Assembly: GCA_011390955.1 (NCBI GenBank)
Contig: JAABRM010000001.1
Location: forward strand, 46,694 to 110,693
Direction of reading: 5' to 3'
Length of the DNA: 64,000 nt
DNA from: Oscillatoriales cyanobacterium
Lineage (GTDB): Bacteria; Cyanobacteriota; Cyanobacteriia; Cyanobacteriales; Laspinemataceae
The number at the start of each line of letters is the position of its first letter. Within the stretch, counting starts at the first letter, position 1. Under the pieces are notes generated by a model, which searched no databases, had not been told where the DNA came from, and saw only the letters and a list, made by a program, of their open reading frames with translations. Shown here in pieces: positions 12,643 through 31,700 of the stretch. The position numbers and the translations under genes are program-made.

Positions 12643-13344
12643 ATGGTCGTCTCCACGGGGCAACAAGCAGCTACCCAACTCACGCATTCTCTCCGAGCCA
12701 AACATCCGAAAAAGCATAATCATTACGGGTTTAAGGACTTTTTTCATTTTGATTCTACCCAAGGCACCATTACCGACTGGAATAACGCTCGGAATATTCT
12801 GACCAGTGAAGATTTTATCATTGGTTTAGTGGAAGGATTAGAAGAAGAAGTCGGCCCAGCTTCTTCGGTGATTATGTACACCATTGGCGAAGAATGGGGC
12901 AACAAAGATGCTGCTTTTTTTAAAGAATGGTTTGAAAAAGAATATGAGCGAGAAGTGCGCCAGACTAATTTAATGTTTCTATTAGAAACTTGGTGGTGGC
13001 CTTTTACTTCTCAAGGCTGGGGACGATGGGAAGTCGATTTGAGCGATCGCAAACATGGGTTTATGTTCATTAACTTATTTGATTCTGCCGTAGCTCGCAC
13101 CCTGGGAGACGTGGGCAAACCCGTTTGTTATATCTACGCGGGATTATTTGCCGGTTTCTTTAGTTGCTTAGTGAAAAAACCCCTAAGCTGCATTGAATTG
13201 CAATGCTACTCAATGGGAGAAACTTACTGTAAATTTCTCATCGGCAACAAAGACCGGATTGATGCGGCAGCTTTTTGGCAAAATGAAGGAGCCACCGCTA
13301 ATGATATTCAACGACGAATGCAGTCCGGGGATCGACTAAAATGA
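12643..13344 (+). CDS. V4R (4-vinyl-reductase-like) domain protein, paralog 1
   Basis: C-terminal V4R cysteine signature 'CYIYAGLFAGFFSCLVKKPLSCIELQCYSMGETYCKF'. Paralogous to 14289-14957 ('IIGLVEGLEEEVG' vs 'IDAIYSGLEKETG'). Confidence 0.7.
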   Translation: MVVSTGQQAATQLTHSLRAKHPKKHNHYGFKDFFHFDSTQGTITDWNNARNILTSEDFIIGLVEGLEEEVGPASSVIMYTIGEEWGNKDAAFFKEWFEKEYEREVRQTNLMFLLETWWWPFTSQGWGRWEVDLSDRKHGFMFINLFDSAVARTLGDVGKPVCYIYAGLFAGFFSCLVKKPLSCIELQCYSMGETYCKFLIGNKDRIDAAAFWQNEGATANDIQRRMQSGDRLK

Positions 13345-13616
13345 ACCAGGCAAAGACTTTACTAAAACTATCAGTCGATCGGTTTTTTAGCCAATGCAAC
13401 TGGACTGGTCAACCCCTAGCAATTCTGGAAAATGCCGATCTAGAAACTGTTCCCGAAATTCGCCTGAGTTTATTAGTCAGCGAATATTTCCGCTTACTTC
13501 CCTGGGAAGGAACTCCGATCGTTGGTTCTCTGCCAAAAGTATCGGCTAATGTTGATTTGCTAGAAACCGATCCCCTTGATGATGTCACCCTTGAGGATCT
13601 CCTCGACTCTTTTTAG
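13341..13616 (+). CDS. hypothetical acidic small protein, translationally coupled (ATGA overlap) to the upstream V4R gene
   Basis: Start overlaps the previous stop by 4 nt. No known motif. Confidence 0.4.
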   Translation: MNQAKTLLKLSVDRFFSQCNWTGQPLAILENADLETVPEIRLSLLVSEYFRLLPWEGTPIVGSLPKVSANVDLLETDPLDDVTLEDLLDSF

Positions 13617-13617
13617 A

Positions 13618-13695
13618 GAGTAGGGTGGGCAATATCTTGCCCACCCTACGAATTGCTACAGTAGTAGGGTGGGCAAGATATTGCCCACCCTACAG
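13618..13695. repeat. two tandem perfect palindromes of the GTAGGG...CCCTAC family (terminator-like hairpins)
   Basis: 'gtagggtgggcaatatcttgcccaccctac' and 'gtagggtgggcaagatattgcccaccctac'. They lie immediately after the stop at 13616. Confidence 0.75.
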
Positions 13696-13750
13696 ATAGC
13701 TACAGATAGTTGAAATACTATTTATCCACATCTACCTAAGAATTAACGCT

Positions 13751-14227
13751 ATGCACCCAGAGCTTTTGAGCCTACTAGAAACGGCTGAACAGCGCTACCT
13801 AGAACCGAAAGAGATTGAACTTTATCGTCGCCATGCGGCCTCTTTAAATCGACGCTTACAAGCCTATGAAATGCTGCGAGAACAAGAAACAAAAATTTTT
13901 CAAGCGATCGCCGATAGACTGGTGAATGCATTACCAAATGAAAGCCAAGAAAATTTAGAACGGTGTTTGAAATATTGGCTGTTAATTGTGCGCTATAGTG
14001 CCACAGCGATGCTAATCAACGATCTTTCTTATTTACAAAACCGTTTGCAGGAATGGGTTAAGGGTTTACTAGAAACTTATGAAACCTATCAAATTGATGT
14101 GCAGGTTTATGACTTACTGATGCAGGAATTAAAAAATTACCTATCTCAAGACGATGTGCGGTTATTAGATCCGGTTCTCCAAAAAGCTAAGGATTTAATT
14201 ATCTCTAAGCAACCCGGCAATTCCTGA
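13751..14227 (+). CDS. phycobiliprotein-family (globin-fold, allophycocyanin-like 'Apl'-type) protein, orphan
   Basis: Region 'ERCLKYWLLIVRYSATAMLINDLSYLQNRLQEW' parallels the phycobiliprotein core '[29 protein letters not shown]'; the Cys sits at the chromophore-attachment position followed by the aromatic/LRIVxY block. No partner subunit, linker or lyase genes nearby. Confidence 0.6.
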   Translation: MHPELLSLLETAEQRYLEPKEIELYRRHAASLNRRLQAYEMLREQETKIFQAIADRLVNALPNESQENLERCLKYWLLIVRYSATAMLINDLSYLQNRLQEWVKGLLETYETYQIDVQVYDLLMQELKNYLSQDDVRLLDPVLQKAKDLIISKQPGNS

Positions 14228-14288
14228 AAAGTTAAGCAGAAAAATTGATTCAGTTTCAGCTAATTAAATATGAGGAATAGGAAGCAAA

Positions 14289-14957
14289 ATGATCTCAATT
14301 ACCAATTTGTTGGAAGATAACGATAAACTTTCAGGAAATTATTTTTCCTCGGATGTTTATGTGAAGGGGGATTTAGAGTTAGGACTATTAGAAAATCGTC
14401 GGGGCGATCGCCTCTTGGCTTTACCGGATACCCTGATTGATGCCATTTACAGCGGTTTGGAAAAAGAAACCGGATCTGCCACCCGTTTAGTGCTGTTTAA
14501 TTGTGGTAAATGGTGGGGCAAGAATTTATATGTCCGTTTTTGCGAAGAAATCCAAGATTACTATAATAAATCAATTGCAGAAATGGACATGATTTCGTTT
14601 GTCCAATGTTTACAACAATTTTGGAAAACTCATGGCTGGGGATTATTTGAATTTGACCAAACTTATTATCAACAAGGATTTTTGGTCTTTAAAATTACTA
14701 ATTCTTCTTTTGCCAAGAAAACCGAGAACTGGTCTGGTCCTGCTTGTTTTTTAGAAGCGGGGATTTTAACTAGCTATTTTAGTCAACTCACCGGACGAGA
14801 ACTTACCTGCGTGCAAACCACTTGTGAATCCCTTGGGGCTGATTGTAATCGGTTTATTTTGGGTTTGCCCGACCGTCTGGAACCAGTGGAAGGTTGGGTT
14901 ACAGAAGGTCTAAACCATGACACGATTATGCATCGATTGTCTGAAACCCAAAATTAA
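14289..14957 (+). CDS. V4R (4-vinyl-reductase-like) domain protein, paralog 2
   Basis: V4R signature 'CFLEAGILTSYFSQLTGRELTCVQTTCESLGADCNRF'. Confidence 0.7.
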   Translation: MISITNLLEDNDKLSGNYFSSDVYVKGDLELGLLENRRGDRLLALPDTLIDAIYSGLEKETGSATRLVLFNCGKWWGKNLYVRFCEEIQDYYNKSIAEMDMISFVQCLQQFWKTHGWGLFEFDQTYYQQGFLVFKITNSSFAKKTENWSGPACFLEAGILTSYFSQLTGRELTCVQTTCESLGADCNRFILGLPDRLEPVEGWVTEGLNHDTIMHRLSETQN

Positions 14958-15618: not shown

Positions 15619-17709
15619 CTAGGCAAAATGCCAAATTTTGACCGTTCTGTCCCAACTGCCACTGACCAAAGTTTGACCATCAGGACTAAAGGCTAAAGAG
15701 TTTACAGTTCCTAAATGGTTGAGAGTTTGTAGTAGTTCTCCGGTGTGATAATTCCAGATTCTAATGGTGTTATCTTGGCCCCCACTGGCGAGAGTTTGGC
15801 GATCGGGACTGAAGGCTAAACAAGATACATAACCTTCATGGTCAGTGAGGCTTTTTTCTAGTTTGCCGGTTTCCAGATTCCATAAATAAATTGGTTGGTC
15901 AGAACCACCGCTGGCAATGATTTTGTCATCGGGACTAATGGCGATCGCCCAAATAATGCCTTTAGACTGATCGAACCAAGAGGCTAATGACCCAAAAAAA
16001 TCATCGGGGCGGTTTAATGTTCGCAGTCTTTTTTCTGCCCGCCAATTCCAAATCATAATCGCACTATCGGCGCCGCCACTGACCAAAATTCGACCATCAG
16101 AACTAAAGGCGATCGCGGTAACTTCCCAGCCATGTCCTTTTAAAGTATATGCAACTTTGCCTCGATCTATTTGCCAAATTCTAATCGCCGTATCCACAGC
16201 GGTAAAACCAATATGTCCACTAGCAAGATATTGTTGGTCACGACTAAATGCCAAACTCCCTACCCGCAGATTGACTAATGAAGCGCCCAGAGATTTTTGC
16301 AGCTTTCTCGTATTTAAATCCCACAGCTTAATTGTGCCATCATTAAATTCGTGATTGCTGGAACTAGCTAATATTTTCCCATCGGGACTAAACGCCAGCG
16401 CAATAATCGCGCTATGGTGTCCGGTGAGGGTTTCTAGGATTTCTCCGGTTGCCGCATTCCATAGTTTAATTGTATTATCTTGACTGCCACTGGCGATGGT
16501 TTTTCCATCAGGACTCATGGCTACGCAAATAATCGGTTGCGTATGTCCAGTTAAGATATGTTTGATTTTCCAAGCGGGAGGCGGTAAAAAGTCTTTCCAG
16601 CTTGGGGGTTTAACGGCAGGATTTTGGCAAATTACCGGCAACCAACTCACCCCCGGATATTTTTTATCCCAGGCATCTTCGAGTTTTTTGCGGGCTAATA
16701 ATACTGAGGTATAAAAAGATTGGTTGCTGGCAAAGGCAGTGAGGAAATCCCTTAAAAAATCCTGGGCTACTTGGTCTGGTATGCGATCGCGCATGACAAT
16801 TATCTGGGGAAACTGTAAGTCTTCCAATTCATTGGCTAATCCCAAACCGTTGCAAGAGTTAAAAAAGGCAATTTTTAAGCCATTTTGAATCGCAGTTTTT
16901 AGAGCATTTTTAAATTCGGGAATCGCCAGATTATCTTGGGCATTAAGCTTAATCCAACCAGTTGCTCGATCGAAATTGCTGTTGCTATGGCCATCAAAAA
17001 ATAAAATATCCCAGCCTTGTGGTTGCCAAAGCATATCCCGGAATGTTTCCGGTGTTGGTTCGATTAACGACACAATTTCGGCATCGTTTAAATGGAGTTT
17101 AATTAAATCTAAGTCAGGGGAACTATTGCCGTCAGGGTATTTTTCTAACCCGGTGCGATCGCCCACCACCACCAAAATTCTCACTCGGTCATGTTTGGTC
17201 TTTTCTCTCCGGGGAGGTGGGGTAAACTCTGGGGTACTCAGGGCAATTTCTACGGGAACCGAAGCATCGGCAAAAAATCTCCAAACGTGCCAAGGGAGGA
17301 GACGAAGTTGCGGGTTTTTGGTTTGAATAATCACCCTAACTTCATTCGTCCCCATTAAATTGCGATTTAATTCATCCCGGATTTTTAGCCAGTCTTCATG
17401 CCCAGAATTCAGCCATCCATTTAACTTTTGAATAAATTGACTTTTCCACTCCACAGCAGGAGTAGCCATAGGACTTTCTGGTTCGTCCTCAAATTGAGAA
17501 CGTTTCATTCCCGGAAGATTCTGATATCCTCTTTGCCAATAGTTATAAAGTTGCCAAAGCGTCGGATTTGTGTCATCTTCTGGCGGCAGTTTACCTTGCA
17601 CTTGGATTTCGCTTCCCGTAGCATCATCATCATCCTGAATTCGCAGCAAAGCCGGAAATCCTGGCTGAAAATTGCCCTCGAATAGGGTTAAGATAACTCG
17701 CTTTCCCAT
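15619..17709 (-). CDS. caspase-like (CHAT/metacaspase-type His-Cys dyad) domain fused to C-terminal WD40 repeats
   Basis: His/Cys dyad context 'ILFFDGHSNSN' ... 'IAFFNSCNGLG'. C-terminal ~8 WD40 units ('AFSPDGKILASSS...TIKLWD'). Confidence 0.8.
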   Translation of the reverse strand: MGKRVILTLFEGNFQPGFPALLRIQDDDDATGSEIQVQGKLPPEDDTNPTLWQLYNYWQRGYQNLPGMKRSQFEDEPESPMATPAVEWKSQFIQKLNGWLNSGHEDWLKIRDELNRNLMGTNEVRVIIQTKNPQLRLLPWHVWRFFADASVPVEIALSTPEFTPPPRREKTKHDRVRILVVVGDRTGLEKYPDGNSSPDLDLIKLHLNDAEIVSLIEPTPETFRDMLWQPQGWDILFFDGHSNSNFDRATGWIKLNAQDNLAIPEFKNALKTAIQNGLKIAFFNSCNGLGLANELEDLQFPQIIVMRDRIPDQVAQDFLRDFLTAFASNQSFYTSVLLARKKLEDAWDKKYPGVSWLPVICQNPAVKPPSWKDFLPPPAWKIKHILTGHTQPIICVAMSPDGKTIASGSQDNTIKLWNAATGEILETLTGHHSAIIALAFSPDGKILASSSNHEFNDGTIKLWDLNTRKLQKSLGASLVNLRVGSLAFSRDQQYLASGHIGFTAVDTAIRIWQIDRGKVAYTLKGHGWEVTAIAFSSDGRILVSGGADSAIMIWNWRAEKRLRTLNRPDDFFGSLASWFDQSKGIIWAIAISPDDKIIASGGSDQPIYLWNLETGKLEKSLTDHEGYVSCLAFSPDRQTLASGGQDNTIRIWNYHTGELLQTLNHLGTVNSLAFSPDGQTLVSGSWDRTVKIWHFA

Positions 17710-17732
17710 TGATATCTCCGATGATTACCAAT

Positions 17733-17868
17733 TCTGTAAGGTGGGCAAAATTTGCCCACCCTACTATTATTAATCGATCTTGTAAATCTTGTAAGGTGGG
17801 CAAAATTTGCCCACCCTACTATTATTAATCGATCTTGTAAGGTGGGCAAAATTTGCCCACCCTACGAT
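17733..17868. repeat. three tandem perfect palindromes (GTAAGGTGGGCAAAATTTGCCCACCCTAC) with ~45-bp period, GTAGGG...CCCTAC family
   Basis: Direct reading. They occupy the whole intergenic space between two co-oriented minus-strand genes. Confidence 0.8.
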
Positions 17869-17875
17869 TAGAAGG

Positions 17876-19036
17876 TTAGATCACAAAATTTTCTGTGATG
17901 CTTACCTCTCCTAATGATAATCGAATACTGAATTGTTCTCCGACCGAACCGCTAAAACCTTGGAGTTCTAAGAAATTGGGATTCGTGGGTTGTGCTTGTC
18001 TGAAAGTATTACCGGATCGATCGAACACGATAACTTGAAGATTTTCAGGCAAATCATTCTCCTCATCGATCGCTTCTATGCGAATTCGGATACTGACTTT
18101 CTGCTCGTTTTTCGGGCGAAATGCTACCAGTAAAGCAACCGTAAAAGATTGCGTTTCGCTGACTAAATCGATCGCTTTTGCCATTTCAATTCCCGCTTGG
18201 GGATGACTGGGATTAATTTTCCCCAAACTTAAAGCCGCTTGCCAAAGAGTTTCGCTATCTTCACTGGTTGCGAGTAAGTCACTCAAAGCGGCGATCGCTT
18301 CAGGAGAGTTTACCCCAATGTCCCCTAATTCCGTGGCAATTTGCCGCCGAGTTATTTCGTCATTGGTGGTTTGCAACCGTTGGATCAGAGGGGCGATCGC
18401 TTCTATTTCATAGGGTGACATAGCACCCTTGTGAGCACCCGTTGCCAGTACCAGTTGTGGTTGCTGCCAATAAGGTTCAAAAATCTCATCTCGGAGATTT
18501 TGCAGCCATTGTCGCCAATTTATCGGCGCTGTTGCGGACTGGAGGCGGACAGCCAAAATTGGCACACCCAATATTTCTGTTAATTGCTTTGTTTTGAACA
18601 AATACTCAATTCGTTCAAATGCTTCTAGGCAACTTTCCAAGACCAGAACAACACTTCCTGGCTCGATTTTTTTCAGGGCAATGAAAGGATTGCCTAAAAG
18701 TTCATTTGCTAACTCAATTAAAGCTTCTGCTTTTTGCCGATCTACTTCGTTGAGTGTAGCACTTAAAAGTAATAACCAGGTGCTTTCCGCAGTCTGAGTA
18801 GTCGGAGTATCTATTGTATTGTCCACAACCTCTTCCCAGTTAACTCCTACTGCCTGACAAATTGCCTTAAATACTTCCTCTTGAATTCTTTTTCCTTGCC
18901 GAAAACGCCGCAAAGTTGCTGGTGAAGTTTGAGCCGCATCAACCCAAGCTACAGCATCCGCGTTCCAGCCTTTCTTTCTTCTAGCTAAATCGACTTTTGC
19001 CAAGCCTTCTTTTGTTGCTTTTAGTGTAATTGCCAT
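17876..19036 (-). CDS. alpha-helical N-terminal adaptor-like domain + HEAT (PBS-lyase-type) repeats + C-terminal domain shared with ORF 39003-39617
   Basis: N-terminus 'TLKATKEGLAKVDLARRKKGWN...ATLRRFRQG...FKAICQAVGVNWEEV' is homologous to the N-terminus of STAND ORF 22452-23810 ('TLKASELGLSKIQQARKDSGRN...ATWRRFLTG...FKAFCQVLGFDWREI'). Mid-region has HEAT-like 'ELGDIGVNSPEAIAALSDLLATSEDSETLWQAALSLGKI'. The C-terminal ~70 aa resemble the C-terminus of 39003-39617. Confidence 0.6.
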   Translation of the reverse strand: MAITLKATKEGLAKVDLARRKKGWNADAVAWVDAAQTSPATLRRFRQGKRIQEEVFKAICQAVGVNWEEVVDNTIDTPTTQTAESTWLLLLSATLNEVDRQKAEALIELANELLGNPFIALKKIEPGSVVLVLESCLEAFERIEYLFKTKQLTEILGVPILAVRLQSATAPINWRQWLQNLRDEIFEPYWQQPQLVLATGAHKGAMSPYEIEAIAPLIQRLQTTNDEITRRQIATELGDIGVNSPEAIAALSDLLATSEDSETLWQAALSLGKINPSHPQAGIEMAKAIDLVSETQSFTVALLVAFRPKNEQKVSIRIRIEAIDEENDLPENLQVIVFDRSGNTFRQAQPTNPNFLELQGFSGSVGEQFSIRLSLGEVSITENFVI

Positions 19037-19606
19037 TATTACCTCAAATTTAGTTGTCAGTCGATCTCAGTTTGATCTCAGTTTGATCTCAGTTGGGCGA
19101 TCGCTCATAAAGATGAGCCTATTTAAACCTTTTCTATACAGCACCATTAAGGTGTGGAGAAAAGTTAGCGCTAACTCCCTTTCTCCTCAGCAGTCAATCA
19201 ATGACCTTGAGGCAGAAACGAGCTATGAAAACTCAATTTTTTACTTCCCCAGTCCTCGTTGTAATTATACTACTGGTCGAGTCCATTTCCTCAGTTTCTT
19301 TGGCAGCCAATTCCCAGTTAAGCCAAAAAGCTGCTATGACCTTGACTGACTCGGAAATTATCGCCAACCAAGACGGCGATCGCACTTCAGAGTCGGATCA
19401 ATGCGACCCAGAGCAAATAAATTGTAACAAAGTATAATCAACCCGCCTTGTTTTCTAATTCCCCTTACGGCTGAAAAAACGCCTTGGGGAATTCTTGAAC
19501 CAATCTAAAAATTTTCCCCCATTCCCACCCTTATTGCCAAGGGGGTTGGGGGAATATTGTGCATAACTCTCGATATATTCATTTCAATTGTGATTGATAC
19601 AATGCT

Positions 19607-19633
19607 GTAGGGGCGCAATGCTTGCGCCCCTAC
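19607..19633. repeat. palindrome GTAGGGGCGCAATGCTTGCGCCCCTAC (GTAGGG...CCCTAC family)
   Basis: Perfect 27-bp palindrome. A near-copy with a degenerate right end is at 3941-3963. Confidence 0.75.
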
Positions 19634-19834
19634 TTGTATTAATTTTAATTCAAACAACTATAAATCATATTTTATTACCCCGATCGAAGCACTTGTGCTG
19701 TATTTATATTTTTGCTTAACAATAATTATTATATTTAAAAATATAATAATTATAATTTTTGCTAAAATACCTTTATTTGGTATATAATTAAACTAAGCAA
19801 ATAACTGCCGAAATTTATCATAAAAATAACTGGC

Positions 19835-20761
19835 ATGACTCGCGAAATCCATGACCAATTTGCTAAAGACTATCTCTCAGAATTACTATCTCATCTCGGA
19901 GAAGTCGAAACCAGCCGGGAAGTCACATCAGAAGTGCGACAAGTGGATGTTTATTTTATCCCCGCTGCCACGCCAAAGGACATCGATCCCAAACTCTTAG
20001 GGTTACTCGCGCCTATGGCCAAAACCGCTGGTTTATTTGAGCCATTTCGCAATCCTCCGACCCCGGTAGAAATCTCTAATTGTTTGGTAAAACTCTTTGG
20101 CGTTCAGGGGGAACAACGCCGCCAAGCCCGTCGGGAAAATGTCAGCCAAACTCAACTTGAATCACCGCGTTTGTGGATTTTATCCCCTTCCATTTCAACG
20201 CCAATTCTGCGCGGGTTTGGGGCGAAACCAGGCGAGTCAGAGGAATGGCCACCGGGAATCTATTTTCTGCCAAAATTTTTTTATACGGGACTGGTGGCAA
20301 TTCATCAGCTACCCGTGACCCCAGAAACTCTCTGGTTGCGGGTTTTGGGTCGGGGAGAAGTCCAAAAAGCGGCGATCGATGAGTTGGTAGCTTTGCCAGA
20401 AGCCAATCCTTTACGGCGTTATCTGCTGGAAATCTTGGCCTCCTGGCGGATCAATGTGGAATTAAGTCAAAATTTAGATGAGCAAGAAAAACAGGAGTTG
20501 ACTATGAACTTATCACCGGCATATTTACGTTGGCGAGAAGAAACTTTTCTTGAAGGTCGTCAAAAAGGTCTTCAAGAAGGTCTTCAAGAAGAACGCCGTT
20601 CAATGATAGAAAATTTCCTGCGAGTTCGCTTTGGAGAAGTGGATGAGCAATTGTCTCAGATTATTGAGTCAATGTTAGGATTGCCTACGGCAGAATTGAC
20701 CGTAATGTTGCTGAATTTTTCCCGGTCTGAGTTGTTAGAAAGATTTGGCCAAAATCGTTAA
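19835..20761 (+). CDS. Rpn/YhgA-like (PD-(D/E)XK) recombination-promoting nuclease / putative transposase family protein
   Basis: N-terminal 'IHDQFAKDYLSELL' matches the family-typical 'HDxxFKxxL' start. The size and C-terminal helical region fit the DUF4351-type tail seen in cyanobacterial members. Confidence 0.65.
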   Translation: MTREIHDQFAKDYLSELLSHLGEVETSREVTSEVRQVDVYFIPAATPKDIDPKLLGLLAPMAKTAGLFEPFRNPPTPVEISNCLVKLFGVQGEQRRQARRENVSQTQLESPRLWILSPSISTPILRGFGAKPGESEEWPPGIYFLPKFFYTGLVAIHQLPVTPETLWLRVLGRGEVQKAAIDELVALPEANPLRRYLLEILASWRINVELSQNLDEQEKQELTMNLSPAYLRWREETFLEGRQKGLQEGLQEERRSMIENFLRVRFGEVDEQLSQIIESMLGLPTAELTVMLLNFSRSELLERFGQNR

Positions 20762-20765
20762 TTAT

Positions 20766-20796
20766 GTAGGGACATGGGCTTTCGCCGTGTCCCTAC
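20766..20796. terminator. hairpin GTAGGGACA-N13-TGTCCCTAC between convergent genes (GTAGGG...CCCTAC family)
   Basis: 'gtagggacatgggctttcgccgtgtccctac' lies 5 nt after the stop at 20761 and upstream of the stop of the minus-strand kinase gene. Confidence 0.5.
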
Positions 20797-20845
20797 AAGG
20801 CAATGCCGTGTCTTTGGTCAAGTCATACCAAAAATATCTGAATAA

Positions 20846-22483
20846 TTAATCCTGGTAGGCTTGGCGTCCTTTTTCTTTTAACCAATGATCTAATTCTGGT
20901 AAGCTGATAGAATCTATGGGACATTTTTCTAATGCGTCTTTTGTCCCAGAAGCGTCTCTCAAACGTTCCATTACTGGTGCGAGAATACAATAAGCTTCTG
21001 GCCGATCGCTGCTAATTGCGATCGCTTCTTCCAGGTATTCCTCCGCATTTTCGTATTGTTCCAGACAGAGTTGTGCTCTACCCAGGTTGGTCAGCAAGCC
21101 ATATTTTCCCGCATATTTTGTAGCGATTTTTAAACCCTCTAAAAATAGGAAAGCTGCCCTCTGACAATCTTGCTTTCCTTGCTCTAGCAGATAGAGGCGT
21201 CCCAGGTTATTATAGGCTGAGGGGTTTTTATATTTAATCGCTTGCTCATATTCCCGAATCGCTGAAGCAATATCGTTTTGGTCTTCATAAAGGGAGCCAA
21301 GATTATAATAAGCTTGGCCGTAATCTGACTTTAGTAATATCGCTATTTGATAGGAATTTTTAGCCCGGTTAAACTGTTGACTTCTGTGATATATAATTCC
21401 CCGTTGATTCATCTCAATAGCCAGTTTATTTGACGCAAAATACCAGCCGATCGCCAATGCCGTTAGTAATAATATTACAGAAGCGATCGCTTTCTGGCCT
21501 TTAAGAAGTTTTTCTGTTATTATATCCTTAAATGGGATAACTTTGCCTGCGGGATCGCCAGATTCTAAATATTCTAAACCTGCTAAAGATTCTAAATCAT
21601 TTAACCGGGATAAAATAACTTCGTTACTGGAGGGACGTTCCCTGGGAAACAAAGCCATCATCTCATCCAGTAAATCTGCCAATTTATCGGGAATTTCCGA
21701 TGCGCGATCGCGCCAAATTAAATCCCCGTTCGTTTCATTTTCTGGTAAATTAATCGGCACAATTCCCGTCAGCAAATGCACCATTGTCCGACCGAGGGCA
21801 AAGAAATCTGATTGAGGCACCGCTTTGCCATTCATTTGCTCAATTGGAGTATAACCTTGTGGGGACATTAATCTCGTATGTTCCGCATCTTCTCCTAACT
21901 TTACCAGATAAGTATTGTTAATTTGCCTAACTCCTCCAAAGTCAATTAAAACCAGCTTGCCGTCCGGTTTCACCATAATATTTTCTGGCTTAATATCCCG
22001 GTGAAAGTAATGATTTTGGTGCAGTTTTTGCAATATTTCCAGCAGTTGTTTTAACCAGTCAATTGCCAATGATGAGGCAATCGGTTGATTATCTCTTTGC
22101 TTTAACCAGGTTAATAAATTTTCCCCGGCAATTTTTTCCATCACCAAACAGTGAATGGTTTCCCGGTCGGCTTCAATGGTAAAATATCCGTCTGGTTCGA
22201 CTTTGGGAATGCCGGGATGATTCAGGTGGCTTAAAACTTTTGCTTCCCGTTGAAACAGCGCGATCGCCTTGTCTTTTTCTGATGGGGGAAAGTTCTCTAA
22301 ATTGAGAACTTTGAGAACTTTAATAAATTTAACTTTATGGCAAGACTTTTCATCCCGGACAGCAAAAACTTCGCCAAAGCCTCCTGACCCAAGCTTTTCC
22401 ACAATTCTATAGCGGTTTTGCACCAGCATACCGATAGATAACATAAGCAACTCACTGGAATATGTGCTTAAATTGGTTAACAA
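20846..22483 (-). CDS. Ser/Thr protein kinase - transmembrane segment - TPR repeats
   Basis: Hanks kinase motifs 'LGSGGFGEVF', 'YFHRDIKPENIMV', 'DFG'. TM 'AIASVILLLTALAIGWYF'. C-terminal TPR-like 'AYYNLGSLYEDQNDIASAIREYEQAIKY...AYNNLGRLYLL'. The first ATG (22483) overlaps the upstream gene by 32 nt; in-frame ATGs at 22444/22429 are alternatives. Confidence 0.85.
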   Translation of the reverse strand: MLTNLSTYSSELLMLSIGMLVQNRYRIVEKLGSGGFGEVFAVRDEKSCHKVKFIKVLKVLNLENFPPSEKDKAIALFQREAKVLSHLNHPGIPKVEPDGYFTIEADRETIHCLVMEKIAGENLLTWLKQRDNQPIASSLAIDWLKQLLEILQKLHQNHYFHRDIKPENIMVKPDGKLVLIDFGGVRQINNTYLVKLGEDAEHTRLMSPQGYTPIEQMNGKAVPQSDFFALGRTMVHLLTGIVPINLPENETNGDLIWRDRASEIPDKLADLLDEMMALFPRERPSSNEVILSRLNDLESLAGLEYLESGDPAGKVIPFKDIITEKLLKGQKAIASVILLLTALAIGWYFASNKLAIEMNQRGIIYHRSQQFNRAKNSYQIAILLKSDYGQAYYNLGSLYEDQNDIASAIREYEQAIKYKNPSAYNNLGRLYLLEQGKQDCQRAAFLFLEGLKIATKYAGKYGLLTNLGRAQLCLEQYENAEEYLEEAIAISSDRPEAYCILAPVMERLRDASGTKDALEKCPIDSISLPELDHWLKEKGRQAYQD

Positions 22484-23810
22484 TATACTTCATTACCACG
22501 GGCTGAAGGGTAAACATCACTGGATCGGAGTCGCTGGTTTTTTCCGTAATTTTTTCAATCAGCGATCGCCTTGCTAAAGACTCCAAAACTTCGATAATTT
22601 GCGAGTGAGAAACCGCTGGGGAAATTTTCTCCCGCATTTGGGAAATAGTTACCGGAGATTCAGCGGTAGCGATGCGATAAAGTACCTTTTTTTCTATGTC
22701 GGAAAGTCGCTCAAACTGCCGGTCTAAAACCTCACTCAATTGTCCCACAAATATAGTATTTTGTTGGATAAATTCCGAACTTTTGCCATTAAATAATTCT
22801 AAAACAGTATCAGCGACAATTTTTAACGCCAACGGGTTGCCTCGATAGCGTTGAATCAGACGATCCCATTCCGGTTCTTCGACTAATCCTTGTTCTTGCA
22901 AAAGTTGTCGGGCTGCCCTTTTTTGCAGTCCCGATATTTTTAAACAACGCACCGGACGCTTACGACCTTCTAGCTTGACAATTTCACGGGGTTTTTCGTG
23001 ACTGGTGATGACAAAGCAGCTTTTATGTATGGATGCACCAATTTGGTAGAATAATTTGGCATAATCTTCATACCCTGGACGATATTTTCCCGCCAGGTCG
23101 TTATTACTAAAAAGGGATTCCAAGCCATCAAGAATAATTAAACAGCGCTGGGAATTGCACAGTTCAACTAAGCGGACGATATTACTTTCTAAGGTATCTG
23201 GTAATGCTTTTTTCGCCTGAGAATTCGGGATTGATTTAATCAGGTTGGGGATAAATTTGTCTGGAGGCGGGGCATATTGCAGACTGCGCCAGATGACGAT
23301 TTGAAACCGATATTTTAGCTGTTTGGCTAATTGGATGGCCAGGGTGGTTTTGCCAATTCCCCCCATACCCAAAATTGCGATTAAGCGGCAGTTTTCTTCG
23401 CCAATCCATTCGCTCATTTGTGTCAATTCTAAGGTGCGATCGTAAAAAACAGTCACCTCTGGGCAGCTATCCCAATCAATGTATTGACCGTCGCTGAGGT
23501 CTTCCAGGTCGGCGTCGGGGCGATCGGCAATTTCCCGCCAGTCGAAGCCCAAAACTTGACAAAAAGCTTTAAACGCCGGGGCAGCCACCGAATATCCGGT
23601 TAAAAAACGTCTCCAGGTGGCCTCGGAACAGCCCTCAGCGTAGGACCCACCAGATGCCCACTCTGACTCTGGACACAAAATCTCACTGGCAGCCACAAGC
23701 CATTCACTGTCATCGCGGTTTCGCCCGCTGTCCTTTCGCGCCTGCTGAATTTTGCTTAATCCCAGTTCAGAGGCTTTGAGAGTGTCCATGCTACCCCAAT
23801 ATCCTTGCAA
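22452..23810 (-). CDS. STAND NTPase (NB-ARC/AP-ATPase type) with N-terminal alpha-helical adaptor domain and no C-terminal repeat sensor
   Basis: Walker A 'GMGGIGKTTLA'. Walker B region 'CLIILDGLESL'. N-terminal domain is homologous to that of 17876-19036. The protein ends ~200 aa after the NTPase core without WD40/TPR repeats. Confidence 0.8.
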   Translation of the reverse strand: MQGYWGSMDTLKASELGLSKIQQARKDSGRNRDDSEWLVAASEILCPESEWASGGSYAEGCSEATWRRFLTGYSVAAPAFKAFCQVLGFDWREIADRPDADLEDLSDGQYIDWDSCPEVTVFYDRTLELTQMSEWIGEENCRLIAILGMGGIGKTTLAIQLAKQLKYRFQIVIWRSLQYAPPPDKFIPNLIKSIPNSQAKKALPDTLESNIVRLVELCNSQRCLIILDGLESLFSNNDLAGKYRPGYEDYAKLFYQIGASIHKSCFVITSHEKPREIVKLEGRKRPVRCLKISGLQKRAARQLLQEQGLVEEPEWDRLIQRYRGNPLALKIVADTVLELFNGKSSEFIQQNTIFVGQLSEVLDRQFERLSDIEKKVLYRIATAESPVTISQMREKISPAVSHSQIIEVLESLARRSLIEKITEKTSDSDPVMFTLQPVVMKYIVNQFKHIFQ

Positions 23811-25123: not shown

Positions 25124-26596
25124 GTGTTATCGTTTTTCTGTGGCTCATTCTGTGACTCATTAAATAACTGTGGTTTTCCTGATGCTATGCAGCCTAAAAA
25201 AATGTCAATATCTTGCTTATTCAAAGCAAAATTATCTCAAAAAATTGTCTTTTGGGTATTTCTTAGTTTGATCGCCATTGAAGCTTTAATTTTAATTCCT
25301 TCAGTGCAACGACGAGAAGAAGAATTACTAGATCAATTAAGCGAGGTATCATCAGCAAAAGTAAATTGGCTAATTGAAACTTATCCGATGATTTCAAATC
25401 AAGAATTTATAGTGCAATTACGCCGACTAAAAGTTGAAACGATGTTTGGCAAAATTATCGGCGGAATTCTCTATGATAGTCAGGGAAAAACTCTCCATCA
25501 ATTTGGCGAAATACCCTCCCTTGATTGGGAACAGGTAATGAGCGATCGCCTCAAACTCAAGGAGTCGCATCTAGACCGATATGATATTGCCTGGAAATTA
25601 GAACAAATTCCGGGAAACTACATATTAATTCTGCGCCATGACTTATCTTTAATTGGCATAGAATTATGGGCATATAAAGCTAGAATAACTGGATTAGTAG
25701 TATTAATTTCTATCGTCGTAACTTCCACCACTATGTTTGTCTTAGGAAAAACGGTAATTTTACCTGTATTGCAACTGCGCGATGACATCCTAGGGGCAGG
25801 AGAAGCCCTGAGTCAAGACTTACCCGCCCCAAACTTTTATTCTTGTTCCGTGCAAAGAACTGATGAATTAGGAGAAGTCATGCAAGCGTTTAAGCAAATG
25901 TTTGAAAGAGTCCATCAAGAAATTGCCGATCGCAAACAAGCGGAAGAAATGTTACGAGGCGAACAGCAAAAATCGGAAACTTTACTCTTAAATATTTTAC
26001 CCATTGCGATCGCCGAAAAATTAAAAAATGGAGAAAATCACATTGCCGAGGGATTTGCAGAAGTGACGATTTTATTTGCAGATATTGTCGGATTTACCCA
26101 ACTTTCCCAACAAATATCCCCGGCTGATTTAGTCCAATTATTAAACCATATTTTTTCTGCCTTCGATCGCTTAAGCGAAAAACATCAATTAGAAAAAATA
26201 AAAACCATTGGGGATGCGTATATGGTAGTGGGAGGTTTGCCCGTTCCCAGACCGGATCACGCCGAAGCGATCGCAGCAATGGCCCTGGATATGCAAGGTG
26301 CGATCGCCGATTTTAATGCCCGAAATAAATCGGATTTAACCATCAGAATTGGCATCAATACCGGGGCGGCGATCGCTGGAGTCATTGGCACCAAAAAATT
26401 TATCTATGACCTATGGGGTGATGCGGTCAATACTGCCTCTCGCATGGAGTCCCACGGCATTCCTGGAGAAATTCAGGTGACAGAATCTACCTACAATCTG
26501 CTGAAACACAAATATTCTTTCCAGCCACGGGGAAAAATTCATATTAAAGGCAAAGGAGAAATGATGACCTATTTACTGAAAAAATCAGATGGTTAG
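25124..26596 (+). CDS. membrane-anchored class III adenylate/guanylate cyclase (CHD domain)
   Basis: CHD motifs 'VTILFADIVGFTQLS' ... 'KIKTIGDAYMVVGGLP' ... 'IRIGINTGAAIAGVIGTKKFIYDLWGDAVNTASRMES'. Two N-terminal hydrophobic segments. Start may be the ATG at ~25187 ('MQPKKMS'). Confidence 0.8.
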   Translation: MLSFFCGSFCDSLNNCGFPDAMQPKKMSISCLFKAKLSQKIVFWVFLSLIAIEALILIPSVQRREEELLDQLSEVSSAKVNWLIETYPMISNQEFIVQLRRLKVETMFGKIIGGILYDSQGKTLHQFGEIPSLDWEQVMSDRLKLKESHLDRYDIAWKLEQIPGNYILILRHDLSLIGIELWAYKARITGLVVLISIVVTSTTMFVLGKTVILPVLQLRDDILGAGEALSQDLPAPNFYSCSVQRTDELGEVMQAFKQMFERVHQEIADRKQAEEMLRGEQQKSETLLLNILPIAIAEKLKNGENHIAEGFAEVTILFADIVGFTQLSQQISPADLVQLLNHIFSAFDRLSEKHQLEKIKTIGDAYMVVGGLPVPRPDHAEAIAAMALDMQGAIADFNARNKSDLTIRIGINTGAAIAGVIGTKKFIYDLWGDAVNTASRMESHGIPGEIQVTESTYNLLKHKYSFQPRGKIHIKGKGEMMTYLLKKSDG

Positions 26597-26705
26597 ACTA
26601 ATTTTGACCTTTTTAGAGATAGAATAATAGTCAGTAGACCGCTAACAGTGGCCGATTGACCGTGAAAGCAAAAAAATAGAGAAATTTCTAAAAGCGCTCT
26701 CAAGT

Positions 26706-28334
26706 ATGAATAACTCCCCAAACTACCCTTCAGGCCCAGTTCCCCTGGACTCTCCATTTTATATTCCCCGTCCCCCGGTTGAAGAACTCGTCTACGAAGA
26801 AATCGGCAAACCCGGTGCGCTGATTCGGATTAAAGGGGCGAAGGAAATGGGCAAATCTTCCTTAATGTTAAGAATTGTGGACTATGCCAAAAACCTAGGA
26901 TACCAGATTGTTGCCATAGATTTTCAACAATTTGATGCCGATTGTCTGAATAATTTAGATCGATTTCTCCGCAGCTTTTGCCTGCAAGTGACTAAACAGT
27001 TAAACCTCGAACCTAACCTTGATGAATATTGGGATGAGGATATCGGCAGTAAGATCAGTTGTAGCCTTTATTTTCGCTGGCATATCCTGGAAAATCTCAC
27101 TTCTCCCCTGGTCTTGGTACTTAATGAAGTCAACGAATTATTTGAATATCCCCAACTCACCCAAGATTTTTTGCCCTTACTGCGATCGTGGTATGAAGAA
27201 GCCAAACAAGTCCCAATTTGGCGATCGCTTAGATTAATCGTCGTCTATACCACCGAAGTTTATGTTCCCCTAAAAATTACCCAATCACCTTTTAACATTG
27301 GTTTACCTGTACAATTAGCGGATTTTACCGCCGAACAAGTAGAAGAGTTGGCAAAATTACATCAATTAGAGTGGAATGAGTCGCACACTGAAAAATTAAT
27401 GGCAATAGTAGGAGGTCATCCGATCTTAGTCCGATTAGCATTATATCACTTGGCCACTCACCCAAAAGAAACCCTGGAAAACCTGCTAAACTCCGCTGCC
27501 AGCGATACAGGCATTTACACAGACCATTTGCAGCGGCTTTCTCGTACTCTGGAAGAAGACCCCGAATTAAAAATAGTGTTCCAAAACTTGATTTTGGGGA
27601 ATAAGTCATTAGAGTTACCGCAAAATTTATCCTATAAATTAGAAAGTTTAGGATTAGTCAATTTGACAAACAAGCAAGTCAAAATCAGCCAGGAATTGTA
27701 TCAAAAATATTTTTGGCAAAAAATTCAAGCAGAAATCGACTTACCGGGAATAAAAGACGCCAAATTTCCGGCTAACATTATGACAAGTTTAGCAAAAGAA
27801 TATCAAAAACTAAAACAACTGGCCGAATTAGACGAACTCACACAATTAGCCAATCGAAGAAGCTTTGAAAAAAAACTCCAAGATTACTGGAACCAGTTGT
27901 CTGACACCCAAGAACCTTTATCCCTAATTATCGGTGAAATTGACTTTTTCAAGGTTTACAAAAGTTACTACGGAGAGAAACAAGCCAACCATTGCTTGCA
28001 GGAAGTAGCCCAGGCATTTATTCAGCCAAGTAAAAGTGAGCACACCCTGGTTGCGCGTTATGGGGATGCTCAATTTGCCGTAATTTTACCGAGAATCGAT
28101 AAATCCGCAGCAGTTGAAATTGCTAAAAATATCCAAGCCCAAGTGCAAGGGTTAAAAATTGAACTGAATATTCCTGATTATTCCGGTTTTCCTGATTCAG
28201 TCGTCACCGTCAGTTTAGGCTTAACCACGATGATGGTGACGGCAAATAGCGCTCTAGATGAGTTAATTTCCCGCACTGGACAAGCATTAAAATCTGCCCA
28301 AATCATTGGCGGAAATTATCTTAAATCTGTTTAA
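26706..28334 (+). CDS. 'AAA-like' (PF14516-type) N-terminal ATPase domain fused to a degenerate GGDEF domain
   Basis: N-terminus 'GALIRIKGAKEMGKSSLMLR' (P-loop-like) resembles the N-terminus of 28755-32321. C-terminal GGDEF fold 'LDELTQLANRRSFEK' but active site reads 'RYGDAQFAVILP' instead of GG(D/E)EF, so it is predicted catalytically inactive. Confidence 0.75.
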   Translation: MNNSPNYPSGPVPLDSPFYIPRPPVEELVYEEIGKPGALIRIKGAKEMGKSSLMLRIVDYAKNLGYQIVAIDFQQFDADCLNNLDRFLRSFCLQVTKQLNLEPNLDEYWDEDIGSKISCSLYFRWHILENLTSPLVLVLNEVNELFEYPQLTQDFLPLLRSWYEEAKQVPIWRSLRLIVVYTTEVYVPLKITQSPFNIGLPVQLADFTAEQVEELAKLHQLEWNESHTEKLMAIVGGHPILVRLALYHLATHPKETLENLLNSAASDTGIYTDHLQRLSRTLEEDPELKIVFQNLILGNKSLELPQNLSYKLESLGLVNLTNKQVKISQELYQKYFWQKIQAEIDLPGIKDAKFPANIMTSLAKEYQKLKQLAELDELTQLANRRSFEKKLQDYWNQLSDTQEPLSLIIGEIDFFKVYKSYYGEKQANHCLQEVAQAFIQPSKSEHTLVARYGDAQFAVILPRIDKSAAVEIAKNIQAQVQGLKIELNIPDYSGFPDSVVTVSLGLTTMMVTANSALDELISRTGQALKSAQIIGGNYLKSV

Positions 28335-28345
28335 TTGATTCAATC

Positions 28346-28380
28346 AAAACGCAACAATTGCGTTTCTATATTTTTCCATT
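28346..28380 (+). terminator. putative rho-independent terminator
   Basis: 'aacgcaacaattgcgtt' hairpin followed by 'tctatatttttcc', 12 nt after the stop at 28334. Confidence 0.45.
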
Positions 28381-28735
28381 CTATTCCCTGTTCCTGATTC
28401 CCTGTTCCTGATTCCCTATTCCCTATTCCCCGTTCCCTTTCCCTATTCCCTATTCCCCGTTCCCTATTCCCTATTCCCTATTCCCTATTCCCCGTTCCCC
28501 GTTCCCTTATGACTTACGCAATGACTCTATATATGGGGTATTGGTGCGTTACGCTTCGCTAACGCACCCTACAAATAGCATTTATGCGTAAGTCCTGTCC
28601 CTATTCCCCGTTCCCCGTTCCCCGTTCCCCGTTCCCTATTCCCTATTCCCTATTCCCTATTCCCTATTCCTTATTCCTTATTCCCTATTCCCTATTCCCT
28701 ATTCCCTATTCCCTATTCCCTATTCCCTATTCCAT
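28377..28735. repeat. STRR-like TTCCCTA/TTCCCCG heptamer array interrupted by an ~90-bp inverted-repeat-flanked insert
   Basis: Arrays 28377-28500 and 28597-28735. Insert 'gacttacgcaatgac...ggtgcgttacgcttcgctaacgcacc...atttatgcgtaagtc' has 10-11-bp terminal inverted repeats and an internal hairpin. Confidence 0.8.
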
Positions 28736-28754
28736 AGCCAAAACCAAATAAACT

Positions 28755-31700
28755 ATGAGTCAATACTCTTACCAAGTCGGGGGAAGTTTAGCTAGTGATG
28801 CCCCCACTTATGTGCAACGTTGCGCCGATCGCCAACTTTATCAAGGTTTAATTAATGGGGAATTTTGCTATGTGTTTAATTCCCGACAAATGGGTAAATC
28901 TTCTTTGCTGGTACAGACAAGAAAACGGTTAGAAGAACTGGGATATCTCTGCACTACCATTGACTTGACTAAAATTGGTAGTGAAAATATCACCCCTGTC
29001 CAGTGGTATAAAGGGATGATGACTGAGTTATGGCAAGGATTCAATTTAATTGGCAAAGTGCGCTTCAAAAATTGGTGGCAAGAAGTTGAAGATATGTCCT
29101 TGTCCCAAAAATTAAGTCAATTTATTGAGTCAGTAATTTTCCCGAATGTTGCGGCAGAAAAAATTTTTATTTTTGTCGATGAAATTGACACAATTCTGGG
29201 GTTAGATTTTTCCGTTGATGATTTTTTTGCCCTGATTCGGTTTTGCTATAATCAACGGGCGGTTAATTCGGAATATCAGCGGCTCAGTTTTGCTTTATTT
29301 GGCGTTGCTACCCCTAGCGATCTAATTAAAGATAAAAGCCGAACACCTTTTAATATTGGCACTGCCATAGATTTAGGTGGATTTGAACCGGAACAAGTTC
29401 AGCCACTCTTGAGAGGATTAGAGGAAAATGTCAGTCATCCCGAAATTGTTTTAAAAGAAATCTTAGCCTGGACTAATGGCCAACCATTTCTGACGCAAAA
29501 ATTGTGTCATTTAGTGATTCGGGAATTTAAAGTTATGAAAAATGATGTAAAAATTCCCCCAGGCATGGAAGCTTTTTGGGTAGAAAGTTTAGTCAAAAGT
29601 AAAGTAATTAACCATTGGGATGCTCAAGATGAACCGGAACATTTAAGAACTATTCGCGATCGCCTCTTACGCAACCAAAAACGAGCCGGTAGATTATTGG
29701 GAATTTATCAGCAGGTATTACAATATGATGCCCTCAACCATGATGCCCTCAACCCACCCTTAGCCAAAAAAGATGCTGAGGGAATTTCCTGTGATGATAG
29801 CTTAGAACAAATTGAATTAATTTTATCAGGATTAGTCGTCAAAAAACAGGGATATTTGCAAATAAAAAACCGCATTTATGGCGAAGTATTTAACTTAGAA
29901 TGGGTAGAAAAACAACTCTCCGGTCTGCGACCTTATTCCCAAACCTTTGATGCTTGGGTCGCTGCCGGACAAACGGATCGATCTCGACTTTTACGCGGTC
30001 AAGCCCTCAAAGATGCTCAACTTTGGGTCCAAGGCAAAAGTTTAAGCGATTTAGATTATCAATTTTTTGCCAAAAGTGAAGAATTGGATCGCCAAGAAAT
30101 GCAAATAGCCTTAGAAGCAGCCAGAACCCAAGAAGTAGAAGCCCGACTTGCTGAAGAACAAAAAAGGCTCAAACAAGAACAAAAAACCGCAAAATTGCAA
30201 CGGTTATTCTTAGGGGTTGTTACATTTGCTTTCGCCATATCTTCGGGAATTGGCTTATTTGCTTTCTGGCAATATCGACAGGCAAGAATCAGTGAAATTA
30301 TGGCTTTGGCTTCATCTTCTAAGGGCTTGTTTGCCTCCAATAAGCACTTAGAAGCGATGATCGCGGCAATTAAAGCCCAACGGGGCATCGACTCTCTGGG
30401 TAAAGTCGATCCCAAAATCGCCACTCAAGTGGAAACTGCCTTAACCCAAGCGATTTATGGCACGAACGAATATAATCAGCTTGTGGATCATCAAGGCAGT
30501 GTTTTGAGCGTGGATATTAGCTTAAATGGCCAGTTAATTGCTACGGCTAGTAACGATAAAACCGTGAAAATTTGGCAGCAAAATGGCAAATTATGGAAAA
30601 CCCTGCCACATTCAGCCACGGTGCATCGAGTTGCCTTTAGTCCAGACAACAAATCCCTCGTTTCTGGGAGTTTAGATGGGACGGTTAAGCTGTGGAATGT
30701 GGAAGGGAAACTGTTACAAGATATTCAGGGACATAATGCCCCAGTTTGGGGAGTTGCTTTTAGCCCCAATGGGCAAATGTTTGCTTCGGCAAGTGGCGAT
30801 CGCACCGTAAAAATTTGGCGCACCGACGGCACATTGTTAACCACTTTAACCGGACATCAACAAGCAGTTTGGAATGTTGCTTTCGACCCTGAAAGTCAAA
30901 TTGTCGCTTCTGCTGGAGTCGATCGCACCGTCAAACTTTGGCAGATTGACGGTAAGTTACTCAAAAACCTAGAAGGACATCAGGGAGCAGTTTGGGATGT
31001 CGCGTTTTGCCAGAAAACTAACTTACTCGTATCGGTTAGTTCCGACAAAACCGCAAAACTGTGGCAAAAAGATGGCACTTTGGTCAGAACTCTTCCGGGG
31101 GAAGATGTCATCATCGGCGTTGATTGTAGCGAGAACGGCGAATACATTGCCACCAGTGGCAAAGATAATGTGGTCGCACTGTGGAAACCCGATGGCACTT
31201 TTGCCAGAAACTTAAGAAAACATGACGCGGTGATTCGGGATGTGGCCTTAAGAACTGATGGCTTGATGGCCGCTTCTGCCAGTGATGATGGCACGGTGAA
31301 ACTATGGCAACGGAATATCTATTTATTAATTCCGCTTTATGGCCATGAGGATACGATTTGGGATTTGACCGCGAGTCCCGATGGGAAATTCATCGCCTCT
31401 GTGGGAGATAATAGTCTCCGACTCTGGGAAGCCAATGGCAAGTTGTGGCAGCAAATCGAGAGTTCAGACCAAGGAATTCGGGCTGTGGCTTTTAGTCCAG
31501 ATTCACAGATCGTCGCCATGAGCAAGAATGCTCAAATCGAGCTTTGGGATGTCAAAAATACTCAGAAATCCCCTACAGAACCGAGAAGAGTATTGACGGG
31601 ACATCAGGCTGCCGTATATGCGATCGCCGTCAGTCCCGACGGTCAAACCATCGCCTCTGGTGGTGACGACAAAACCATTAAACTTTGGCATCTGGACGGA

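Follow-up and report, generated by a model that had tools for sequence, protein, structure and literature searches.

How can an NLR-type ATPase without a sensor of its own be switched on and off? The question is raised by a locus in a 64,000-nucleotide stretch of an Oscillatoriales cyanobacterium genome (NCBI GenBank assembly GCA_011390955.1, contig JAABRM010000001.1, positions 46,694 to 110,693 of the forward strand; hereafter the window), in which a gene for a short STAND protein, consisting of an N-terminal helix-turn-helix (HTH) domain and an NB-ARC ATPase core, is followed by a gene for a Hanks-type Ser/Thr kinase with a transmembrane (TM) helix and a C-terminal tetratricopeptide repeat (TPR) region. 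An original prediction, made from the letters of the window alone, took the two for a split NLR-like unit with overlapping reading frames, in which the TPR array would be the detached sensor of the STAND protein, or alternatively for a kinase under the control of an NTPase switch. Our analysis indicates that they make up a two-gene cassette for signalling, conserved in filamentous cyanobacteria and probably acting as one unit, and we tentatively place the input on the kinase and the switch and output on the STAND protein. Coordinates are collected in Table 1.

The STAND-kinase pairing is conserved

Relatives of the STAND protein were taken from a scan of 185,579 species genomes (one genome per species), of which the best 80 copies were kept, in 79 loci from 79 species genomes that were annotated by script; these and further loci are cited by number (L002 and so on). 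They comprise 64 long copies (~1,170-1,260 aa), with NB-ARC and WD40 in the two that were scanned for domains, and 16 short copies (418-570 aa). A co-directional Hanks kinase gene lies directly downstream of 10 of the 16 short STAND genes and of none of the 64 long ones (Fisher p=4.9e-9), and two other short STANDs have a kinase gene close by on the opposite strand. The original prediction would have been refuted, among other ways, if the two genes were never adjacent elsewhere, and this survey shows the adjacency to be conserved. Approached from the kinase side, a short NB-ARC gene lies immediately upstream in four of the six homologues sampled (42-49% identity to the window kinase), those from Nostoc, Phormidium, Leptolyngbya and Oscillatoria.

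In conserved pairs the kinase starts 0-200 nt after the short STAND, and the two genes stay together, in different genomic contexts, in orthologous loci with 90% and 53% identity. Over 16 pairs, STAND and kinase identities co-vary (r=0.84, Mantel p ~2e-4), with r=0.37 for the pairs below 60% identity. In a neighbour-joining tree of the NB-ARC region (no bootstrap, midpoint-rooted) all 64 long forms make up one clade that contains no short form; because the short STANDs fall outside this clade, they are an old lineage and not recently split NLRs, and recent truncation of a WD40-bearing STAND was rejected. We conclude that the pairing is more than chance and is conserved both statistically and phylogenetically. 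The architectures of cyanobacterial kinases have already been catalogued (PMC2176072, PMC1262709), and in the searchable literature, whose coverage is incomplete, we found no description of a pairing between a short HTH-NB-ARC gene and a kinase gene. Each gene, taken alone, is an ordinary member of its family.

The STAND protein ends at its winged-helix domain

The STAND protein scores 39.2 bits for NB-ARC in Pfam (cut-off 23.5), also matches NACHT and carries the P-loop GMGGIGKTTLA; its Walker B motif LIILDG (D221) and the GNPLAL GxP motif of helical domain 1 (HD1; P319) are invariant in homologue alignments. An AlphaFold (AF2) model with 72 homologues (predicted local distance difference test score, pLDDT, 88.9) consists of a five-helix N-domain (aa 1-90), a short linker, the nucleotide-binding domain (NBD), HD1 and the winged-helix domain (WHD), and the chain stops ~5 residues past the WHD. 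In Foldseek this model has plant NLR resistosomes, CED-4 and Apaf-1 as its top matches (E=1e-12 to 1e-10), and the sequence profile, compared with PDB sequences, matches plant CNLs and AfsR (E=1.9e-6 for AfsR). With its Walker A and B motifs, GxP motif and NBD-HD1-WHD fold, the protein belongs to the AP-ATPase/NB-ARC clade, the clade noted as closest to Apaf-1 (PMC13581612).

What the protein does not have is the C-terminal sensor typical of the STAND class. The original prediction had called it devoid of WD40, TPR and LRR repeats, and this was borne out: no repeat domain has a Pfam match in it, and the model leaves no room for one behind the WHD. Of over 2,000 homologues detected, the best 120 are all repeat-less and 376-558 aa long. 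The protein finds no match among the PADLOC models and possesses neither an enzymatic N-domain nor a large C-terminal sensor, features that set it apart from Avs and bNACHT proteins; on the PADLOC result, a known defence STAND was rejected.

The N-domain had been described as an adaptor common to the STAND protein and to a 386-aa protein encoded beside a CHAT-WD40 gene. The homology stands (the N-terminus of the protein encoded at 17876..19036 shows 34% identity in 87 aa, with E=3e-9), and the adaptor is a putative Cro/C1 (XRE)-type HTH fold, for which DNA or protein is a candidate partner. Its sequence matches to HTH_31, HTH_26 and the XRE-type regulator 3tyr are all sub-threshold. The logic of "effector-associated domains", by which such an N-domain could be an adaptor, is set out in PMC8195603. 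Among the relatives, one N-domain matches HTH_VMAP-M9, two others give Sigma70-r4/LuxR-like matches at sub-threshold scores, and the paired STANDs carry several kinds of HTH where these are assignable, L059 and L074 being left without a type.

The C-terminal module of the kinase varies between copies

The downstream gene encodes, as judged from its sequence, a Hanks-type Ser/Thr kinase: the Pkinase domain scores 112.4 bits in Pfam (cut-off 31.7, E 3.3e-32), and the glycine loop, HRD and DFG motifs are all in place. The prediction of a Hanks kinase with one TM helix and a TPR region thus holds, with a single hydrophobic segment and TPR matches above threshold. Because the only TM helix precedes the TPR region and follows the cytoplasmic kinase domain, we infer that the repeats are extracytoplasmic. 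The kinase domain also reaches 336 bits on the PADLOC PD-T4-6 model PDLC04051, a match to the generic kinase domain only, on a model given no curated cut-off.

The linked kinases form one kinase-domain subfamily, with mutual identities of 46-63%, and differ in what follows the kinase domain. A TM-TPR C-terminus is found in the window and in L002, L004, L006, L063, L075 and L086, a Peripla_BP_6/ANF receptor domain in L005 and L009, CHASE2 in L064 and L074, SH3_3 in L059, and a cytosolic WD40 domain in L007 and L008; in most of the linked kinases a hydrophobic segment lies between the kinase domain and the sensor. Receptor-kinase input modules of this sort have been catalogued for cyanobacterial kinases (PMC2176072). 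Since the C-termini differ while the STAND stays, the variable, signal-reading part resides on the kinase, and the constant switch with its HTH on the STAND protein. The idea that the TPR array is the displaced sensor of the STAND protein was therefore rejected: the array lies behind a TM helix, according to the inferred topology, and paralogous pairs have a CHASE2, periplasmic-binding, SH3b or WD40 module in its place. It would instead be the kinase's own, mostly extracytoplasmic, input domain.

A receptor kinase as the proposed input to a cytoplasmic switch

Our preferred reading, held tentatively and somewhat short of probable, is that the receptor kinase is the input and the sensor-less HTH-NB-ARC protein the cytoplasmic switch and output. 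Input is assigned to the kinase because its variable domains are typical receptor modules and its constant partner carries HTH-type N-domains. The membrane kinase would sense a signal with its C-terminal domain, here the TPR array beyond the single TM helix, and would then act on the cytoplasmic STAND protein by phosphorylation, membrane tethering or both; the STAND protein, with no sensor or arm of its own, would depend on the kinase to gate its nucleotide switch and oligomerisation, and its output would pass through the N-terminal Cro/C1-type HTH, most likely as DNA binding and transcriptional control. The intact catalytic motifs of the kinase and the invariant Walker A/B and GxP motifs of the STAND protein are consistent with this assignment. 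A more specific form of it would be a trans-gated bacterial NLR, in which a dedicated membrane receptor kinase reading an extracellular cue licenses NB-ARC oligomerisation, with an output to transcription through the HTH and, in many genomes, also a coupling to CHAT/caspase-like proteases; stated so specifically, we consider it distinctly doubtful.

Several observations weigh against placing the input on the kinase. The link between STAND protein and kinase is in this case a genetic linkage; a nearby kinase is missing for four of the 16 short STANDs, and in two of the six sampled kinases, both from Nostocales, the upstream position is taken by a HAMP histidine kinase. The SH3_3-bearing partner and two TPR-bearing partners (L084 and L087) show no clear TM segment. 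The N-domain of the STAND protein also occurs on the TRADD-N protein beside the CHAT-like gene, which could mean an adaptor role. In the case of AfsR, phosphorylation by AfsK only slightly affected transcription and was judged an unlikely trigger of activation (PMC10936776). Finally, one natural fusion protein of 1412 aa (P0270 in our protein collection, WP_348249622.1, from Leptolyngbya sp. GB1-A1) places a kinase of this subfamily N-terminal to NB-ARC and WD40, that is, in the position of an effector.

This fusion introduces the alternative that fares best, in which the flow is reversed: the NB-ARC protein is the switch and the kinase an effector, activated by induced proximity when the STAND protein oligomerises and feeding CHAT/caspase-like proteases, for example the TRADD-N/CHAT-like-WD40 pair 1.8 kb downstream, in anti-phage defence or kin conflict. 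We regard it as possible, if on the whole unlikely. P0270 is 52% identical to the window kinase and 36% to the window STAND protein, and a second fusion (P0269, WP_293134277.1, Microcoleus sp., 888 aa) joins CHAT, a zinc ribbon and a kinase of the subfamily; P0270 is, however, a singleton cluster, a stand-alone kinase from its own strain matches its kinase half at 70% identity (44% of the junction query covered), and the 120 best matches to that query, with a top coverage of 67%, include no further kinase/NB-ARC junction, so that it may be a one-off chimera. Proximity to CHAT genes also favours the reversed flow: a CHAT gene lies within 7 kb in 3 of 10 loci with a short STAND and a kinase versus 1 of 61 long-form loci (p=0.008), a triad of kinase, TPR_12 protein and TPR-CHAT protein recurs, and the TRADD-N protein carries a homologous HTH N-domain. 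A role in conflict is suggested by the type ISP restriction, PIN and antitoxin genes that surround L002 and L086, by the decay of the module in a relative at 91% identity and by the score of the kinase domain on the PD-T4-6 models, but these models match Hanks kinase domains in general, the STAND protein is unmatched by PADLOC, and the CHASE2, periplasmic-binding and SH3b modules indicate extracellular ligands over phage components. Reversed flow would, moreover, leave nothing obvious to trigger a STAND protein without a sensor, and nothing in the kinase is homologous to the STAND N-domain and could serve to recruit it.

That the two genes are co-located or co-transcribed only, their products not acting on each other, is very improbable. 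Hanks kinases and STAND genes run to dozens in cyanobacterial genomes, and some short STANDs and some family kinases occur unpartnered, but against chance proximity stand the association with short over long STANDs reported above, co-variation over more than 15 pairs from different orders and the persistence of the pairing while flanking genes and kinase C-termini change.

The two genes are separate and closely spaced

Mechanical open reading frame (ORF) calls put the STAND frame at 23810..22452 and the kinase frame at 22483..20846, both co-directional and adjacent on the minus strand in the ORF list of the 64-kb window, which led to the claim that the STAND stop lies 32 nt inside the kinase frame. 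This overlap needs the in-frame TTG at 22483. The NCBI-sourced products in the protein collection start at the ATG codons 23789 (STAND, 445 aa) and 22444 (kinase, 532 aa), and close kinase homologues are 529-534 aa long at 99-100% coverage. In the orthologous loci L002 and L086 the spacer is 13 nt, and a Shine-Dalgarno sequence, AAGGAGG, overlaps the STAND stop and lies 7 nt 5' of the homologous ATG, from which a kinase N-terminus (MLSPG..) homologous to that of the window (MLSIG..) is read; L004 has a 7-nt spacer, as in the window. Because homologue lengths, database starts and the orthologous Shine-Dalgarno sequences all point to ATG 22444, the STAND TGA and the kinase ATG are 7 nt apart, and overlapping frames were rejected as an artefact of the TTG start. 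The junction has tight operon spacing with non-overlapping frames; of the coupled unit in the original prediction, a tightly spaced, conserved, operon-like pair remains, whose functional coupling is very likely, and the overlap falls away. Scans for promoters and terminators gave counts near the shuffled expectation and were uninformative.

The chance that the pair is one gene encoding >990 aa, which a recent frameshift or an error in sequencing has broken in two, is negligible: the gap is only 7 nt, and in the relative L089 a 1-nt deletion does split the STAND gene itself, but stop, spacer and ATG, with a Shine-Dalgarno sequence before the ATG, recur in independent assemblies at 90% and 53% identity, the kinase domain begins ~11 residues past the ATG here and likewise in at least 140 of the 150 closest kinase representatives, and among the 120 STAND and 120 kinase homologues listed no STAND has a Pkinase domain, no kinase has an NB-ARC domain and the anticipated STAND-then-kinase fused frame does not occur.

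Comparison with known systems

AfsK/AfsR of Streptomyces coelicolor resembles the window pair in that AfsR joins a DNA-binding-type N-domain to an NB-ARC nucleotide-binding oligomerisation domain (NOD) and a Hanks kinase is encoded in the same cluster; AfsK phosphorylates the NOD/TPR part of AfsR, which results in more oligomers and DNA binding (PMC10936776). By analogy, the window pair would follow the logic of AfsK to AfsR with sensing moved from the STAND protein to the kinase. AfsR has a SARP (OmpR-type plus BTA) domain and not an XRE HTH, and it retains its arm and TPR sensor, whereas the window STAND protein ends at the WHD and the TPR region sits on the kinase behind the TM helix. Scores on the NCBIfam equivalogs (14.6 bits for AfsR, cut-off 1430; 42.3 for AfsK, cut-off 1300) place neither protein in these families.

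The long, Apaf-1-like NB-ARC-WD40 paralogues of cyanobacteria belong to the same NB-ARC family (39-46% identical), and those in L010, L014, L016 and L055 have the same N-terminal HTH, but they carry ~750 aa of WD40, lack the downstream kinase and form the clade without short forms. CED-4 of C. elegans likewise combines a small helical N-domain with NB-ARC, has no repeat sensor and is controlled in trans by a partner; it differs in having a CARD and HD2, in being held by CED-9 and in activating a caspase, where the window STAND protein has an HTH N-domain and a kinase partner. Both in structure and in sequence, the window STAND protein is matched best by plant CNL resistosomes. In the plant NLR-kinase circuits, such as ZAR1 with receptor-like cytoplasmic kinase (RLCK) pseudokinases and Prf/Pto, an NB-ARC protein depends on a separate kinase-fold partner; the plant NLRs, unlike the window STAND protein, keep their LRR sensors, and the kinases are baits or decoys and not operon-encoded receptor kinases.

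The window kinase scores on a PADLOC model for anti-phage kinases of the PD-T4-6/Stk2 type, a generic kinase-domain match; those systems are single genes without a STAND partner. The two-gene TRADD-N/caspase systems described by Kaur et al., 2021 (PMC8195603) are a possible match for the neighbours at 15619..19036, in which a protein with an HTH-type N-domain, TRADD-N and HEAT stands next to a caspase-like protein with a variable C-terminus. S/T kinases, CHASE2 and STAND are among the variable partners listed by these authors, whose account does not describe an operon of short HTH-NB-ARC and receptor kinase (PMC8195603).

Neighbouring genes and a decayed relative

In the 386-aa protein, TRADD-like_N scores 32.2 bits (cut-off 23.7), and its gene is adjacent to the CHAT-like one; the two lie 1.8 kb downstream of the STAND-kinase pair. 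Relatives of the window kinase recur beside CHAT genes and are once fused to CHAT. This link between cassette and CHAT recurs and may be functional, as a candidate association. The TRADD-N gene is separated from the kinase gene by a gene on the opposite strand (window 19835-20761, plus strand) for a 308-aa protein with only a weak C-terminal match to DUF4351, which is 96% conserved and at the same position in L004.

The triad of a kinase-TM-TPR protein, a TPR_12 protein (~310 aa) and a TPR-CHAT protein (~950 aa) occupies L084 4878-9647, L087 6587-11478, L090 5674-9677 and L092 5917-9659; it is preceded by a short NB-ARC gene in L084 and L087 and by a HAMP histidine kinase in the Nostocales loci L090 and L092. 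In L002 (6630-7724, 11541-17006) the 53%-identical pair has a divergent gene for a trypsin-like protease on one side and a type ISP restriction enzyme on the other; a PP2C phosphatase is found 6 kb off.

Elsewhere in the window, a signalling run at 25124-32321 on the plus strand comprises an adenylate/guanylate cyclase (25124-26596) and two AAA_35 NTPases, of which one is STAND-like and fused to GGDEF (26706-28334) and the other carries ~11 WD40 repeats in fusion (28755-32321). At 12643-14957 (plus strand) a phycobilisome-family protein is flanked by two V4R-domain proteins, a layout kept in L089.

The window contains 90 occurrences of the HIP1 octamer GCGATCGC, against 0.6 expected, an excess that by itself identifies the DNA as cyanobacterial. 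In the syntenic locus L089 (GCA_053487675.1, ~91% nucleotide identity) window positions 21483..16116 (5.4 kb) are absent, and both breakpoints of this deletion are HIP1 octamers (window 21483-21490 and 16109-16116; L089 6955-6962). The first of them overlaps codons 1-3 (AIA) of the TM helix, and at both breakpoints the octamer codes for Ala-Ile-Ala in the respective gene. The deletion leaves an in-frame chimera (P0131, 483 aa) in which the kinase domain runs on into the final WD40 blades encoded by the CHAT-like-WD40 gene, which looks like domain shuffling via HIP1 microhomology. The STAND orthologue of L089 (4657-5993) is broken by one 1-nt deletion into ORFs of 182 aa and 236 aa, through recent pseudogene formation or else an error of assembly. 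To judge by this assembly, the STAND-kinase locus is dispensable in GCA_053487675.1.

Table 1. Features of the STAND-kinase locus and its CHAT/TRADD-N neighbours (window coordinates)
Feature	Position	Strand	Details
Short STAND gene	22452..23789	-	445 aa; ATG 23789, stop TGA 22454..22452; HTH + NB-ARC (NBD-HD1-WHD), no repeats
N-terminal five-helix Cro/C1 (XRE)-type HTH domain, putative	23520..23789	-	aa 1-90; 18 aa inserted compared with the 386-aa neighbour's copy
Walker A P-loop GMGGIGKT	23346..23369	-	aa 141-148; G141, G144, G146, K147 and T148 invariant in 23 homologues
Spacer from STAND stop to kinase ATG	22445..22451	-	7 nt; upstream in-frame TTG 22483 produces the apparent overlap
Receptor-type Hanks Ser/Thr kinase gene	20846..22444	-	532 aa; ATG 22444; P0121 is 100% identical, 532 aa
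Kinase catalytic domain	21614..22411	-	~aa 12-277; Gly loop GSGGFG, HRD148 and DFG168 intact
Lone predicted TM helix AIASVILLLTALAIGWYFA	21434..21490	-	aa 319-337; Kyte-Doolittle 2.14, sole segment >1.6
C-terminal TPR region	20924..21409	-	~aa 346-507; TPR_8, TPR_1, TPR_11 and TPR_2 above cut-offs
HTH + TRADD-like_N + HEAT + DUF1822 protein	17876..19036	-	386 aa; HTH of the STAND N-domain family; possibly linked neighbour
CHAT/caspase-like protease fused to WD40 repeats	15619..17709	-	Pfam CHAT 22.2 bits, cut-off 24; possibly linked neighbour

Significance

For most cyanobacterial Hanks kinases, substrates and triggers are described as unknown (PMC6985446). Kinases of a subfamily that keeps company with one particular partner gene offer a directly testable kinase-substrate hypothesis, and if the trans-gated arrangement is true, these kinases would gain a genetically assigned substrate. 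The STAND protein, for its part, is a natural case of an ATPase without sensor or arm, and thereby a clean test of an NLR-type switch controlled in trans; if such gating is confirmed, it would be a prokaryotic counterpart of the plant circuits that run from receptor kinases and RLCKs to NLRs. Through its recurrent closeness to TRADD-N proteins and CHAT proteases, the cassette is connected with the conflict and cell-death networks of "multicellular bacteria" of Kaur et al. Even if the pair is an ordinary signalling unit, recognising it would improve the annotation of more than 2,000 homologues that are now labelled "NB-ARC domain protein" or "protein kinase".

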